A stretch of 42,920 nt of DNA, from positions 1-42,920 of IMG/VR virus record IMGVR_UViG_2541047955_000001; one strand, written 5' to 3'. Positions within the stretch are counted from its first letter, which is position 1. Every line of letters starts with the position of its first letter. This DNA is from a virus (lineage: Duplodnaviria; Heunggongvirae; Uroviricota; Caudoviricetes). Both the position numbers and the translations under genes were made by a program. This document shows positions 1,369 through 41,470 of the stretch, piece after piece. Below the pieces are notes generated by a model. It searched no databases. It was not told where the DNA came from and saw only the letters and a list, made by a program, of their open reading frames with translations.

Positions 1369-1444
1369 GCCGATATAGCTCAGTTGGTAGAGCAGCGCAT
1401 TCGTAATGCGAAGGTCGTAGGTTCGACTCCTATTATCGGCACCA
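1369..1444 (+). tRNA. thrW: tRNA-Thr (anticodon CGU)
   Basis: 76-nt cloverleaf GCCGATATAGCTCAGTTGGTAGAGCAGCGCATTCGTAATGCG...ATCGGCACCA; anticodon loop TTCGTAA; classic P22 attB tRNA. Confidence 0.93.
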
Positions 1445-1446
1445 TT
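1399..1446. other. attL core (3' part of thrW)
   Basis: attcgtaatgcgaaggtcgtaggttcgactcctattatcggcaccatt repeated at 41423-41470. Confidence 0.85.
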
Positions 1447-3545: not shown

Positions 3546-3820
3546 TTCGTTCAAATTGCGTTTACTTCTTGGCGTTCTGCTCATCCATATCGATATACCA
3601 TGGGTTGCTTCCCTTGGGCATGTTTAACGACTGCTCGCGATAGTATCTGATGCGCTCCATGAAATATTCGCGTGAGTGCTCAGGTTGCTATCATGATACC
3701 TGCTCAGTGATAACAGGTATGTTAAGGCGCTCTCTGTACTCCATGCCTGATGCTGCAAGGTCAACGTTTACCTTGTTCTGTTTTTCTTTCGATTTCTCGG
3801 CGATGTTATGCCTGACATTG

Positions 3821-4063
3821 TCAACCCGCCTCCTTCTGAACATAACGGTTATAAATCAGTCCCTGAGGGCCATAAGGAAGCGGGATGTGCAACTCCTCTG
3901 GTTCAGAAACTATCCATTCCCCGGCCATCTCGGCTGGAGAGGTAATGATAAGTTGTTTGCTAATAAAAGGACCACTCCTCTCAACAACAAGCTTACCATC
4001 TTCATTAATAAAAGCTTGGATGTCAGGTGTGCTTCCACACTTGGTGATGCAGCGTTTGAACAT
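3821..4063 (-). CDS. hypothetical protein
   Basis: Track ORF 3821-4105; start placed at internal Met with GGGGGA-type RBS; the overlapping plus-strand ORF looks antisense-like. Confidence 0.4.
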   Translation of the reverse strand: MFKRCITKCGSTPDIQAFINEDGKLVVERSGPFISKQLIITSPAEMAGEWIVSEPEELHIPLPYGPQGLIYNRYVQKEAG

Positions 4064-4189
4064 TTTGTGTCCCCCCATTTTATGTACGGGGTAATTATAA
4101 CACATTGAAATATAGTAATATTTGACGTAGATTTCTTTTGATCTATAAGCGATTTTTTAATGCTTTTAAGTTATAAATACTTGTTTTCA

Positions 4190-18105: not shown

Positions 18106-18180
18106 GGGTCAGTCGTATAAAGGTCATTACGGAAGGCTGTTAACCTTCTTATCGTGGTTCGAGTCCACGCTGTCCCGCCA
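18106..18180 (+). tRNA. tRNA-like, Asn (GUU) anticodon, imperfect stems
   Basis: 75 nt ending CCA; anticodon stem GAAGG/CCTTC, loop CTGTTAA; T-loop TTCGAGT; one T-T mismatch in acceptor and D stems. Confidence 0.45.
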
Positions 18181-18185
18181 AATAT

Positions 18186-18261
18186 GCTGGTTTAGCTCCA
18201 ATGGTAGAGCGGTCGCCTTGTAAGCGAATGGGTAGCGGTTCAAGTCCGTTAACCAGCACCA
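18186..18261 (+). tRNA. tRNA-Thr (UGU)
   Basis: 76 nt; 7-bp acceptor stem GCTGGTT/AACCAGC; D stem GCTC/GAGC; anticodon loop CTTGTAA; T-loop TTCAAGT; 3' CCA. Confidence 0.6.
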
Positions 18262-34458: not shown

Positions 34459-35097
34459 TTAATTGCGAATGGAATCGCGGAACTCTTTGCTTGATAGAAA
34501 AGGATCTGTTCTCCTTAACTCATCATAGTTTTTATTAAACTTTCTTGCTTCACCCGGGTATCTGTTGAACAAAACATTGCAGAAAAAAGAGAGCAATAAC
34601 TCACATATGAATGCTAATACCCTGAAAAATAAAGGTATAAAAAGAAGGGAAGGTTCATTGAAGTCTCTATTCCAAACAAAATAGACAATCATCCCGACAT
34701 ACCAAATTGATATCCCTATACTGATGATTGTTCCAACAGAGGTAACTACGATCCCGATTAAGTCGGACAGTCTGTTTGCCAGTAACTCATTTGAGTATCT
34801 TGCAATCATATACCGCCAACATTTTGCAATATCATCCTGATCTGTAGAGTCTTCTGGAATAGCTAGGCTTCTACATATTGAAGTAGCTCTTTTTTTCTCA
34901 ACTCTTTTTGAGAGCCATCCATTAAAGAGATACATCAACACCTGCGTTGCTATTCCTGCACCAAGTGATATCAAAGACATCCCCAAAAATCGCCATCCTG
35001 GAGATAGTGACTGGTACTGCCAAACAAAAAAAATTAAAAAACCCAATGAGCCTATGACATAGGCTGATGTATCGCTATATATATCTATTTTTTTCAT
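34459..35097 (-). CDS. integral membrane protein, possible SieA-like superinfection exclusion factor
   Basis: Track ORF 34459-35130 (GTG); start at ATG with AAGGAG RBS; ~4 hydrophobic helices; AT-rich; occupies the P22 sieA position. Confidence 0.55.
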   Translation of the reverse strand: MKKIDIYSDTSAYVIGSLGFLIFFVWQYQSLSPGWRFLGMSLISLGAGIATQVLMYLFNGWLSKRVEKKRATSICRSLAIPEDSTDQDDIAKCWRYMIARYSNELLANRLSDLIGIVVTSVGTIISIGISIWYVGMIVYFVWNRDFNEPSLLFIPLFFRVLAFICELLLSFFCNVLFNRYPGEARKFNKNYDELRRTDPFLSSKEFRDSIRN

Positions 35098-35147
35098 TGA
35101 GTAGCCACTCCTTAGTTTTGAGCAGAACACCGGATGATAATGTTTTG

Positions 35148-36408: not shown

Positions 36409-36495
36409 TTGGTGCACAGGACGGCGCAAAAGAAAACCGCCAGTGTGCTGCTGGCGGCCTATGTCACACCCTTACTACCACATAAGGAATGCCTA

Positions 36496-37224
36496 ATGAC
36501 TTTTAAGAATGTAGCAAACATCGGATCCGTTGTCACGGATAAAACCATTGATAGCCAGTACCTGTTAGAGATGGTCAATCATGCTCGTAGACAGTGCGGG
36601 GAAAAAGAAGTTCGCAATAACGACTTTATTGCACGCATTAAGGATGAACTTGAAGGTGAGCACTACGAAATTTTCGTAGTTCAAAAATCAAACAAGACAA
36701 CTTCTGAAAAAGTTGTTATGTCAATTAAGCAAGCCCTTCGAGTGGCTGCTCGTGAATCTAAAGCTGTTCGCCGCTCACTTGTAGACCAACTTGAAAGTAT
36801 GCAAGAAGCGCACATTAAAAGCGGTAAATCGTCGAGTGGACTTGTTGAGTATCGCCAGGCGCGAACACTGAAAATGACGGTTGAAGCTGTTACCAATCTG
36901 TTCGATCTGATGCCAAATCTTGCGCCTGAGGCAAAGCAGACAGCGGCAGCAAGTATAATCAACCCGCTCGTTGGTTTTAATGCAATACCTCTTCCGGCAA
37001 TAGAAGAGCATTACTACTCAGCAGGGGAGGTTGCAGAGCAGCTTGGAGTAACGGCCAACAAGATTGGTCGCATTGCTAACGCAAACAACCTCAAAACTGA
37101 GCAGTACGGGAAGTTCTTCCTGGATAAATCTGCGCATTCCAGCAAACAGGTGGAAGCATTCCGCTACAATGCGGAAGGTGTTAAAGCACTACAACACCTG
37201 ATTCATGGGAGTAATGTTGCATAA
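36496..37224 (+). CDS. antirepressor-like protein with KilAC-type C-terminal region
   Basis: Track ORF 36409-37224; start at MTFKNV with AAGGA RBS; C-terminal YSAGEVAEQLGVTANKIGRIANANNLKTEQYGKFF. Confidence 0.5.
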   Translation: MTFKNVANIGSVVTDKTIDSQYLLEMVNHARRQCGEKEVRNNDFIARIKDELEGEHYEIFVVQKSNKTTSEKVVMSIKQALRVAARESKAVRRSLVDQLESMQEAHIKSGKSSSGLVEYRQARTLKMTVEAVTNLFDLMPNLAPEAKQTAAASIINPLVGFNAIPLPAIEEHYYSAGEVAEQLGVTANKIGRIANANNLKTEQYGKFFLDKSAHSSKQVEAFRYNAEGVKALQHLIHGSNVA

Positions 37225-37445
37225 TGGCAAAGAAAAAATATGGCATTATGCCTCCAAGAATCAAAGGAAGAGCCAGGGTAAAAGGCGATGCTGGAAGGTA
37301 TCACATTCTTGGAGTTCTGTGGCATGAGAGAGCTTTAATTTTAAGTAGACCTCATGGGTACATTGAAAAGGTATCTATAGATAGAGTAGAGATTCTTCCC
37401 CTTACACCTGAAGAAGAAGAAACGTACGGACTTTTTGATAACTAA
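37224..37445 (+). CDS. hypothetical protein
   Basis: 73-aa ORF, translationally coupled to the upstream gene (TAATG), followed by a terminator. Confidence 0.45.
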   Translation: MAKKKYGIMPPRIKGRARVKGDAGRYHILGVLWHERALILSRPHGYIEKVSIDRVEILPLTPEEEETYGLFDN

Positions 37446-37859: not shown

Positions 37860-38360
37860 TTACCTACTCAACAGATGGTCAGCAACCATGTTTGCTGCCT
37901 TATAAGCTATAGCCGCTTCATCAATGGTGTTGAATCTCCCAAGGGTTATGTTTTTACCTGAGACATTTATCTGAGCTTGCCATTGATTTCTGGCTTGACA
38001 GAAAGTTACCCCCTTGATTCCAGCATTGCTATTTCGAGGTCCGACATTTAATGCATTTACGACTCTGCTGACATCCCTAAGGTTTGAGATTGCGTTATTT
38101 CTTCTGTTTCTATCAATGTGGTCAATCTCTTGTTTGGGCCATTCGCCATATACATACAGCCAGGCAAGTCTATGTGCAAAATATCTTACGCCATCAATAT
38201 TAATTGCGTTATATCCATAAGAAATTGTGCCAGCAACTTTCCCAACAGCACCTCTGGCGCTTAATTTCTTTTTCCAAGTGAAAATTCCTGTTTCTTTATT
38301 GTAATCGAGAACCTCCATAAGGCGCTCCCGAGTTACTACCTCGTGACGTCTCTTACTCAT
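37860..38360 (-). CDS. HNH endonuclease with AP2-type DNA-binding domain
   Basis: Track ORF 37860-38402; start at MSKRRH after GGAGA; HNH motif [27 protein letters not shown]; C-terminal AP2-like [27 protein letters not shown]. Confidence 0.75.
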
Positions 38361-38373
38361 TATTTTCTCCGGA

Positions 38374-41088
38374 ATGTTTATTATGCCAGAACAATTATAC
38401 AACGTTGTTGTTTCACAACCAAGTCAGTTATTTACTTTAGCTCGCTCGTTTAAAGCAAATGCCAATGGCAAAATTTATATCGGTAAAATTGACACTGACC
38501 CTGTAAATCCTGAAAACCAGATTCAGGTTTATGTGGAGAACGAAGACGGTTCTCACGTTCCTGTTTCGCAACCAATAATCATTAACGCTGCCGGATATCC
38601 GGTATATAACGGACAGATTGCCAAATTCGTAACCGTGCAAGGCCATTCTATGGCTGTTTACGATGCTTATGGCACTCAGCAGTTTTATTTTCCAAATGTA
38701 TTAAAATACGATCCAGATCAGTTTGGCCCAGACTTCAAAGAGCAGTTATCTCAATCAGGAGCATACATTAATGATGATTCAAAAGGTGATGCATTAATTG
38801 GGGTAAGGCAGCCATTTACCGGGGCTGCAACTATAACTCAGCATGAAAACAATGCTCTTTTCTTAAATGTAAAACAATTTGGAGCAATTGGGGATGGGAA
38901 ATATCATCCATTATCTGAGTGGTTTTCTTCAATTTCTGAAGCAAAATCCTTATATCCTTTTGTTGACTCATTATCTCAGTCAATAGACTGGGCCGCGTGG
39001 CAAGCTGCCCTTAACACAGGAAAGGTTATTTATGGTACTGATAATGCGTATGTAATAACGGATACGTTAACACCTGTTTCTGGTGGTGGGATAATTTGTC
39101 TTGGTGTGGGCAAATGGGTCTCAGGATATACTGCAACATTTGCTCCTGATATTACCACAGGGACCACATTCCTGATGTACGGGGTAGGAAATAAAAAATA
39201 TACTGTAGATTGTGTTTCTAATATGGATGTTAGTGGTGGTGTGGTTTCTAACCCATCTTCCGAAGACCCGTATACAACAACGGCACCTGCGTCATCATAT
39301 GATTTATTGGATTTTACTAACGGTGATGCTAATGGGACTACAAGAGCCACGCTTAAACCATTCTCTGCCGCAATATTGATGCCTGAGACAGGATGTGTTC
39401 GCCTTGAGAACTTTCGTGTTGTTCCATATTTCAATGGGCTGGATGGTTATAAAGACATTGCAAATACCGGTCTTGGCGATGAGTGGGATGTAGGTATTTG
39501 GTCACGTGCGTCTTTTGGCAATGAATACCGCAATTTGCAGGTGGTTGGATACTGGCGCAAGACGGCACTTTTAAAAACGAACATTCCTGTATCTGGCACG
39601 CTGGCCGCTCAGGGCGAGGATGAAAACTATTATCACTGTAGATTCCAAGGATTCAAGGGTATTTCGATCCGCGCCCATGATGTATTCCGAATTACAGCGG
39701 TAACGTCCAGCACTATCGAAATACCATGGTCAGCAAGCCACACCTTCGAAACGTCCGGGGTTTTAAGATCTGGAGGCAGGAATTTCACTTATTCAGGATT
39801 ATCCGTATCCGGTGATAAGTTAGTATTTACTGGAGTGTCTAACGCTTCTGAGGCAACAGTAGGTTCTACTATACGGCGAAATGACATAGATAACTTTGGT
39901 ATGGCGGGAACGCAATTTTTCGATTGCTACATTACCAGCCTGTATCACCACACACATCTGCTTGCCACATCGCAATACCTGTCTCAACCATTCAGCCGAC
40001 CATCAGAGTGTATGGAGGTTTCAGGGGAACCAGTTCGCGGTGTACAGGTACATGCAGGAACCATTCAGGGATGGGATGATGTTCTTATTCATCTACATGA
40101 CTGTGGAAATATGAACTTTTACAGTACATATTTCGAAAGCCAGCAAGCATATGTAACTATAAATGGTGGTAATGCTATTGGTTATGGAGCACGTATGATA
40201 GCTTCCCGGCAATCAACAAGCTCATTACCATATGCAGCAGGGAATACTCGAGTGCTTAGAATGGTCGGGTGCTCTGAAGGCAATGGCGTTGACTGGGGTC
40301 CTGTATTTAACAACTATACAGGAGGAAGATATAATTCCGGAGACGGTGTATTTAACCCCCGCGATGCATTTATAGACCATAAATCTCTTCCTGAGCAGTC
40401 AGGAGGTGAGTCAAGACTCGTATCACAAAAAGGAAATGCCAGAGTAGTATGTGGTGTTGGTAAAACTGTACTGCTTGGACCAACGTCAGGAGATTGTAAT
40501 TTACAGAGTAATACTGGAAGTTTAAATATTAGAAGTGGGATAAGAGTAAGAATCGGTCACGCTGATGGAACAGACTGGTGGTTGGCAGATGCTAATAAAA
40601 TAGCTCCTGTTGATGATAATGTTAAAGCCATTGGACAGCCATCAAACAGATGCTCTGTTATTTATGCAGGAACCGGGTCAATCAATACATCAGATGAAAC
40701 TCTTAAAACAAGATATGATATTCTTAATGCAGAGCGTGATGCCGCTATTGAAATAAAGTCAGTCATCTATAAATTTAAATTTAATGACTCAATTAATAAC
40801 AAAGGAATTGAGTCGTCCAGGTATCATTTTGGCGTTGGCGCTCAAACCGTAGGGGATATTCTTAGAAAGCATGGTTTAAACCCTGAGCAATATGCTTTTT
40901 GGTGTTACGATGAATGGCCTGACGTATGGGATGAAGAGGTGATAACTGAAGAGAGCACAGATCCTGATACAGGTGAGAAAATTTATTCTCAATATAAAAC
41001 AGGAGATATGATTCTTGTAAAAAAAGCAGGAGGACGCTACGGAATTCGTTATGACGAATTGGCTATGTTTATATTAATGGCAATGTAG
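38374..41088 (+). CDS. tailspike: P22/Sf6-type head-binding domain, beta-helix depolymerase, C-terminal S74 chaperone domain
   Basis: 904 aa; conserved N-terminal head-binding region; FGAIGDGK beta-helix start motif; C-terminal SDETLK...[10 protein letters not shown]74 signature; true start may be ATG at 38383. Confidence 0.9.
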
Positions 41089-41106: not shown

Positions 41107-41137
41107 ATCCCGCATAAAAAATGCGGGATTGTTTTTA
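41107..41137 (+). terminator. intrinsic terminator after the tailspike
   Basis: Hairpin ATCCCGCAT-aaaaa-ATGCGGGAT followed by TGTTTTTAT. Confidence 0.6.
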
Positions 41138-41422: not shown

Positions 41423-41470
41423 ATTCGTAATGCGAAGGTCGTAGGTTCGACTCCTATTATCGGCACCATT
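41423..41470. other. attR core (displaced 3' fragment of thrW)
   Basis: 48-bp exact copy of thrW 3' portion 1399-1446; no 5' tRNA half present. Confidence 0.85.

Follow-up and report, generated by a model that had tools for sequence, protein, structure and literature searches.

The locus considered here raises the question of what a P22-like prophage can carry behind a P22-type virion anchor, and which polysaccharide of its host the resulting spike is directed against. It lies in a 42,920-nucleotide (nt) stretch of Caudoviricetes DNA, called the window below (IMG/VR record IMGVR_UViG_2541047955_000001, positions 1 to 42,920), where a P22-like Escherichia coli prophage of about 40 kb, integrated at thrW, ends with a tailspike gene. 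A first-pass annotation, made from the sequence alone, had described a chimeric tailspike with a self-cleaving C-terminal end; its observations are borne out in part and its structural interpretation is supported. The product can be read with good confidence as a protein of three modules (a head-binding domain, a right-handed parallel β-helix and a peptidase S74 chaperone) that would trimerize, cut itself and act as an enzyme. A temperate podovirus that looks intact would use it as its receptor-binding tailspike, and a K13/K20/K23-type capsule is the leading candidate for its substrate.

The assignment of the first ~115 residues to the P22/Sf6 head-binding domain holds. The Pfam family Head_binding (PF09008) matches amino acids (aa) 4–116 over the whole profile length, scoring 214.5 bits where 24 would suffice (E = 3.7e-64), and among the sequences in the PDB the domain finds Sf6 gp14 (7sg7, E = 2.6e-82) as well as P22 (1lkt, 2vky). 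This part would dock the trimer to the tail hub, as it does in P22, Sf6 and CUS-3. The likeness to Sf6 gp14 runs on beyond the domain to about aa 178, with a neck that is ~50% identical. No sequence is shared with the P22 endorhamnosidase past aa ~124, and because the center lacks that enzyme's sequence, the receptor specificity should differ from that of P22, as had been proposed.

The central region opens with the motif FGAIGDGK (aa 169–176), which had been taken as typical of β-helix depolymerases, and the predicted fold agrees. Structure prediction, named at the outset as a check, gave an AlphaFold2 monomer model of aa 118–904 from an 83-sequence alignment with a mean predicted local distance difference test score (pLDDT) of 89.4. 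The model has the features of a right-handed parallel β-helix; Foldseek agrees, and most of its top structural matches to the central domain are enzymes. By sequence, aa 206–729 belong to phrog_33794, whose function is not annotated, while phrog_1171 ("tail spike protein") spans aa 9–904. The β-helix family numbers 1132 representatives (at 50% identity) at E <= 1e-3 and 154 at E <= 1e-30; its alignment was built from this representative search, as a direct homologue search gave only ~99%-identical Escherichia coli proteins. Matches to solved proteins (phi297 gp27, LKA1 gp49, GH55 glucanases, Sf6 and AlgE4) fall in the first ~100 residues of the helix, and when the family profile was compared with PDB sequences, solved structures were reached solely there and at the C-terminus. 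The pectate-lyase-like family PF12708 is found in relatives, namely in the Vectrevirus KMB14 protein (36 bits against a cut-off of 27) and in 21 of 55 family members.

Several polar residues of the helix stand out. D372, R433 and E588 are invariant over relatives at 26–45% identity, and D436, E548 and H525 are near-invariant in the family (>=95%), as are R348 and R555. This is the pattern expected of an active site, and it would fit a hydrolase and a lyase alike. The helix would bind and most likely cleave a host surface polysaccharide, giving the virion access to the outer membrane. The profile of the GH58 endosialidase β-propeller (PF12217) has no match in the tailspike, whereas CUS-3 scores 775 bits, and the protein is therefore not an endosialidase; the label "putative endo-N-acetylneuraminidase" on some database relatives (such as P0018) comes from the common stalk and chaperone only. 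Codon 242 (39097–39099) encodes Cys in the tailspike and in the closest deposited protein examined (P0001), Gly in 50 of 55 family members, and Gly also in some 99%-identical alleles (P0015, P0028).

The helix is followed by a stalk, presumably a trimer-intertwined triple β-helix, in which the pLDDT is low (55–76), as expected of a monomer model. The last ~130 residues had been read as an S74 chaperone, and profile similarity is indeed found: PF13884 (Peptidase_S74) matches aa 773–835 at 24.2 bits, just above the curated threshold of 22. A phmmer search with the C-terminal 181 aa retrieves the solved chaperones of Klebsiella phage Kp7 gp51 (7y5s, E = 3.4e-23), endoNF (3gw6, 1.9e-14), T5 pb1 (4uw8, 5.7e-12) and GA-1 (3gud, 2.6e-9), together with 9vvr and 6eu4; such matches are far beyond chance. 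The model, with a pLDDT of ~90 in this part, matches the same folds in Foldseek (3gw6 with E = 9e-10 and probability 1.0, 4uw8 with 6e-9, and 3gud with a target template modeling score of 0.76).

The chaperone of endoNF is known to release itself by means of an S911/K916 dyad (PMC3742443, PMC8326128). Arg897 in the stalk is needed as well, and cleavage thereby reports correct folding of the trimer (PMC8326128). In the tailspike, S773, K778 (+5) and R759 (−14) align without gaps with S911 (S911A in 3gw6), K916 and R897, and S773 also aligns with the mutated Ser of 4uw8, in an alignment that spans the PSNR and TSD..LK motifs. Since all three residues stand in the endoNF columns, cleavage directly before Ser773 is predicted, and by homology this prediction of autoproteolysis appears well founded. 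The chaperone (aa 773–904) would nucleate trimerization and folding of the stalk before it and, with Ser773, Lys778 and Arg759 brought into their proper places, would then cut itself off. Of the 98.5-kDa precursor, 83.2 kDa would remain as the mature spike, and a 15.3-kDa fragment would be discarded.

Module swapping had been proposed, and it is demonstrated by comparative breakpoints. A tailspike of 824 aa, found in ~20 complete genomes and called here the Combat2C1 type, is 94% identical in DNA over nt 1–348 of the gene and 88% over nt 2266–2715, with an unrelated middle. The YDC107-type protein (991 aa) has the reverse arrangement: it shares nt 408–2714 at 98.7% nt identity and has a different N-terminal anchor, the N-terminus of a phrog_1640-type tail protein. 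In Kayfunavirus YZ1, aa 134–904 recur at 72% identity behind a T7 tail-fiber N-terminus. The middle (aa ~117–755) thus behaves as an exchangeable cassette between conserved head-binding and S74 flanks, in which recombination moves it among P22-like prophages and onto unrelated virion platforms. With three such platforms and breakpoints at aa ~116–136 and ~756, this is a clean and well-delimited case of exchange. The same ~99%-identical cassette occurs at two places in the genomes AHB29, SBF22, DLL7555 and 702/18, on a P22-like prophage and apparently on one of the YDC107 type; the location of the second copy was viewed for 702/18 among these four. The Combat2C1-type protein itself (Combat2C1 L004 3010–5484) has a different, PF12708-type β-helix, and its prophage lies next to a tRNA-Arg gene and yfdC.

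Base composition does not belong among the evidence for swapping. The receptor-binding part had been described as more AT-rich than the N-terminal module, and the measured difference runs the opposite way: the GC fraction is 0.441 in the center (aa 206–729) and 0.385 in the head-binding module (aa 1–117). Only the S74 end (0.364) lies below the N-terminal module, and all modules lie below the prophage mean of 0.47. The proposal of swapping consequently stands on the breakpoints, and the compositional argument for it falls.

The question of the substrate was approached through the genomes that carry the module. When the β-helix DNA (window 39000–40600) was searched against 5426 complete E. coli genomes, 15 carriers were found. 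A kps region 2 of the krkA type, that is, of the K13/K20/K23 type, is present in 11 of these, compared with 65 of the 5426 overall (from a chimeric query of module and krkA segments; Fisher p = 4e-19, or 2e-17 with a same-patient pair collapsed, both uncorrected for shared ancestry). The enrichment appears on both platforms, in 6 of 8 P22-type carriers and in 5 of 7 that have the YDC107 type only.

Region 2 of the group 2 capsule locus in YDC107 consists of an insertion sequence (IS) fragment, a hexapeptide acetyltransferase and a protein of 1114 aa. The first 357 residues of the latter are essentially identical to KrkA (PDB 9yfx, E = 1.8e-236), and its middle resembles the Bcs3 ribofuranosyltransferase. 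KrkA is the K13 capsule polymerase, and a region 2 made up of these three genes has been published for the K13 locus (PMC12887879). One backbone, ->3)-beta-D-Ribf-(1->7)-beta-D-Kdop-(2->, is common to the K13, K20 and K23 capsules, which O-acetylation alone sets apart (PMC12887879).

The O-antigens of the carriers differ. YDC107 is O102:H6 (PMC6035167), and O102 was considered as the receptor and rejected: its wzy gene occurs in 1 of the 15 carriers (107 + 15 − 121 = 1), with no enrichment (p = 0.26). O1 was set aside likewise; EC21Z-151 is O1, but O1 wzy occurs in 2 of 15 carriers, the EC21Z pair alone. The co-occurrence with one capsule type and the variety of O-antigens together make the capsule the probable target, and the K13/K20/K23-type group 2 capsule would be the most likely substrate, ahead of the O-antigen, with an even chance of being the right one.

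A number of points weigh against the reading as a whole. The tailspike itself has no match to the PF12708 profile at E < 1, and its assignment to the pectate-lyase-like superfamily would rest on homologues and the predicted fold. In the stalk, the C-terminal part of PF12219 (End_tail_spike) matches aa 738–772 with 22.8 bits, below the cut-off of 25, and the Pfam score for S74 clears its own cut-off only marginally. The statistic that links carriers to the capsule ignores shared genome ancestry, and the capsule types were read from the complete carrier genomes. Four of the 15 carriers have no K13-type locus, and sensitive blastn at E <= 1e-20 found no divergent krkA homologues in them. Three of the four were inspected (23CRST013 was left out) and have other capsule loci: XH992 and LS45 with an unrelated, glf-type region 2, and AHB29 with a wecB/wecC-type region 2, AHB29 being the genome closest to the window. 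For LS45, kpsF/E/D/C (region 1) and flanking island proteins share RefSeq WP accessions with YDC107, while kps region 2 is unrelated and kpsT/M are different, which suggests a recent capsule switch in which regions 2–3 were replaced after the prophage had been acquired. Finally, P22-like tailspikes and the nearest sequence neighbors, phi297 and LKA1, act mostly on O-antigens. The main alternative is that the β-helix is an O-antigen (lipopolysaccharide) endoglycosidase like those of P22, Sf6 and HK620, and that the link to the capsule reflects shared strain ancestry. It would account for the head-binding domain and prophage type, which are those of O-antigen-specific phages, for two O-antigen tailspikes, phi297 gp27 and LKA1 gp49, being the closest solved relatives by sequence where the helix begins, and for the carriers that lack the K13-type locus in an association uncorrected for phylogeny. 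However, carriers of the 99%-identical module span at least three O-antigen clusters, and those outside the one O102 and two O1 genomes have neither type; with O102 unenriched and the K13-type locus enriched on two unrelated prophage platforms, this alternative is unlikely.

Other explanations concern the protein rather than its target. The S74-like domain might stay uncleaved on the mature spike as a distal knob for receptor binding or trimerization, which would suit its borderline Pfam score, the view of some authors that receptor recognition resides in C-terminal domains (reviewed in PMC5380687) and the fact that the Ser column holds Ser in 35 of 55 family members, such that not every relative can cleave. 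All three residues required in endoNF are kept, however, and align with two solved chaperones without gaps; the predicted fold also matches 3gw6, 4uw8 and 3gud; retention of the domain is accordingly judged improbable. Equally improbable is a central domain that binds glycan as an adhesin and has no depolymerase activity: six residues (D372, E588, D436, E548, R433 and H525) are kept at 26–45% identity as in an active site, the top structural matches are mostly enzymes, and podovirus tailspikes of such a fold are generally depolymerases (PMC5380687). It is very improbable indeed that the prophage is defective and its tailspike gene a relic without a functional product. In favor of decay, an IS3-family transposase splits the P22-type copy of strain 702/18 (NZ_CP074701.1, 4845265–4849267) into a head-binding fragment and a tail-fiber fragment. 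The reading frame in the window, by contrast, is intact and 98–99.7% conserved over eight genomes; its prophage retains attL and attR, an integrase gene and a late region of full length, and a 72%-identical module is found in the lytic phage YZ1.

If the preferred reading of a capsule-cleaving spike is right, the protein would have some practical interest. K13_K23 is among the K types most linked to invasive E. coli disease (PMC13171606), and tailspike-based capsule reagents exist for K1 and K5 only (bioRxiv 10.1101/2025.01.29.635457). A self-maturing trimeric spike for K13/K20/K23 would be a tool for typing, detection and decapsulation, and would represent a new family of glycan-cleaving enzymes. 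Phage-borne "KDO-glycanases" that attack capsules of this kind date from biochemical work of the 1980s, which is not known to have included gene sequences. In the searchable literature, no sequenced phage enzyme or tailspike reagent specific for K13/K20/K23 was found. Rather tentatively, then, phrog_33794 (the 154 representatives at E <= 1e-30) could represent the first phage depolymerase defined by sequence that acts on the E. coli ribofuranose-Kdo capsule of K13/K20/K23, although the odds lean somewhat against it. Such an enzyme would act on the β-Kdo or the β-ribofuranosyl linkage and would have no solved or curated relative past the first coil of the helix.

The features of the tailspike gene and its surroundings are listed in Table 1. 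The second ATG as the start lines up with the MTDI... N-termini of P22, Sf6 and CUS-3. The other motifs named in the first-pass annotation, SDETLK, GVGAQ and [17 protein letters not shown], lie at aa 773–778, 820–824 and 834–850. The protein is not new to the databases, which contain proteins 98.6% identical to it under the name "phage tailspike protein"; between it and P0001, 13 of 901 residues are different, and 8 of these fall within the first 29. NCBIfam has no family for the tailspike, nor for the 991-aa YDC107-type form. Sigma-70-like sites around the gene number 8, compared with 11.9 expected from shuffled sequences, from which no dedicated promoter can be deduced.

Table 1. Positions in the window of the tailspike gene, its modules and the features that bound the prophage
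Feature	Residues	Position (nt)	Strand	Basis or remark
tRNA-Thr(CGT) gene, thrW		1369–1444
attL		1399–1446		Exact repeat search
Tyrosine integrase		1459–2619	−
HNH endonuclease cassette		37864–38430	−	Includes HNH_3+AP2 gene, 37860–38360 (−); Pfam
Tailspike open reading frame (ORF)	904 aa	38374–41088	+	Uninterrupted; ORF list
Likely true start (second ATG)	901-aa product	38383	+	Start used by RefSeq homologues
Module 1, P22/Sf6-type head-binding (virion-anchoring) domain	4–116	38383–38721	+	PF09008
Neck/linker and N-terminal cap	117–165	38722–38868	+	Holds the 5' recombination breakpoints
5' breakpoints		nt 348 of the gene (Combat2C1 type); nt 408 (YDC107 type)		blastn and windowed identity
Module 2, right-handed parallel β-helix, putative depolymerase/receptor-binding domain	~166–667	38869–40374	+
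Stalk, presumed trimer-intertwined triple β-helix	668–772	40375–40689	+	Includes Arg759 (40648–40650)
3' breakpoint	756	nt 2266 of the gene		blastn
Module 3, peptidase S74 intramolecular chaperone and stop codon	773–904	40690–41088	+	PF13884, phmmer, Foldseek
Predicted self-cleavage, directly before Ser773	Ser773; Lys778	40690–40692; 40705–40707
Terminator-like hairpin and T-run		41107–41129	+	19 nt past the stop; consensus scan, pattern match only
attR, 48-bp exact direct repeat of the thrW 3' end		41423–41470		Exact repeat search

The bounds of the prophage follow from the 48-bp att repeat. Upstream of the tailspike gene lie a P22-type (P22AR) antirepressor, an Arc-like repressor and the HNH endonuclease, and a near-identical prophage in AHB29 has genes for P22-gp16-family ejection proteins, Ant and Arc upstream. 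The position of the gene is that of a P22-like tailspike, the final one before attR and after immI (arc/ant). The HNH cassette, which is free-standing and lies exactly at the 5' end of the gene, contributes the first 57 nt (19 codons) of the tailspike ORF, and the N-terminus consequently reads M(FIM)[11 protein letters not shown]... rather than MTDITANVV.... AHB29 has 34 bp in place of this 567-bp segment, which the Combat2C1 prophage carries at 97.8% identity; the pattern suggests that a homing endonuclease was inserted and the adjacent sequence co-converted.

Past attR, the window contains a truncated P4-type integrase, of which only the Arm DNA-binding domain is present, and a low-GC gene of the MarR family (41623–41961 and 42396–42920). 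In AHB29, the region continues into an island with the vat autotransporter (toxin), and the integrase fragment and the MarR/vat region point to two mobile elements in tandem at thrW. Genes for tRNA-Asn(GTT) and tRNA-Thr(TGT) are found in the middle of the prophage (18106–18261); an Rfam scan of the window gave three tRNAs and nothing else. Four ORFs in the immI region or near the integrase have no Pfam family (34459–35130 (−), 36409–37224 (+), 37224–37445 (+) and 3650–4108 (+)) and might be candidate genes for superinfection exclusion or defense.

Among known systems, the spikes of P22, Sf6 and HK620 have the same head-binding domain, general fold, prophage type and thrW site. However, they end in a β-sandwich or β-prism trimerization domain without S74, their substrates are O-antigens, and their helices share no detectable sequence with that of the window past the first coil. 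The S74 chaperones (MEROPS/Pfam) of endoNF (K1F, 3gw6), T5 pb1 (4uw8), the GA-1 neck appendage (3gud) and Klebsiella Kp7 gp51 (7y5s) have the dyad and the stalk Arg in common with the tailspike. These solved examples sit on passenger domains unlike the one found here, and for the window protein the cleavage is a prediction.

Closer relatives of the cutting module are attached to other anchors. The YDC107 type is 99% identical over aa 136–904, including the S74 end; the YZ1 protein (AUX83623.1), 72% identical, has Tail_spike_N in addition to its T7 tail-fiber N-terminus; and the KMB14 protein (WPK27916.1) is ~40% identical, again including the S74 end and with a different anchor. All three fall in phrog_1171 and phrog_33794.

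The nearest parallel is the endosialidase tailspike of CUS-3 (siaK1; Stummeyer et al. 2006, via PMC5380687), which shares both layout and genome position: aa 1–113 are Head_binding (PF09008), followed by an enzyme, an End_tail_spike stalk and Peptidase_S74 (aa 818–878). The two proteins are 83% identical over the N-terminal module and 36% identical over stalk and chaperone, a stretch that includes PxNR...TSD..LKT. The enzyme and chaperone of CUS-3 are also found on a T7-type N-terminus in K1F (PMC5380687), just as the cassette of the window recurs in YZ1, and that P22-like and T7-like phages trade tailspike cassettes is by now textbook knowledge (PMC5380687). CUS-3 differs in that its enzyme is a K1-specific β-propeller sialidase (PF12217, PF12195, PF12218), whereas an unrelated β-helix takes its place here, and the capsule target is probably different from K1. 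The architecture is thus already known from the CUS-3 design, while the passenger enzyme differs; what is new is the K13/K20/K23 capsule as the probable target of the cutting module.

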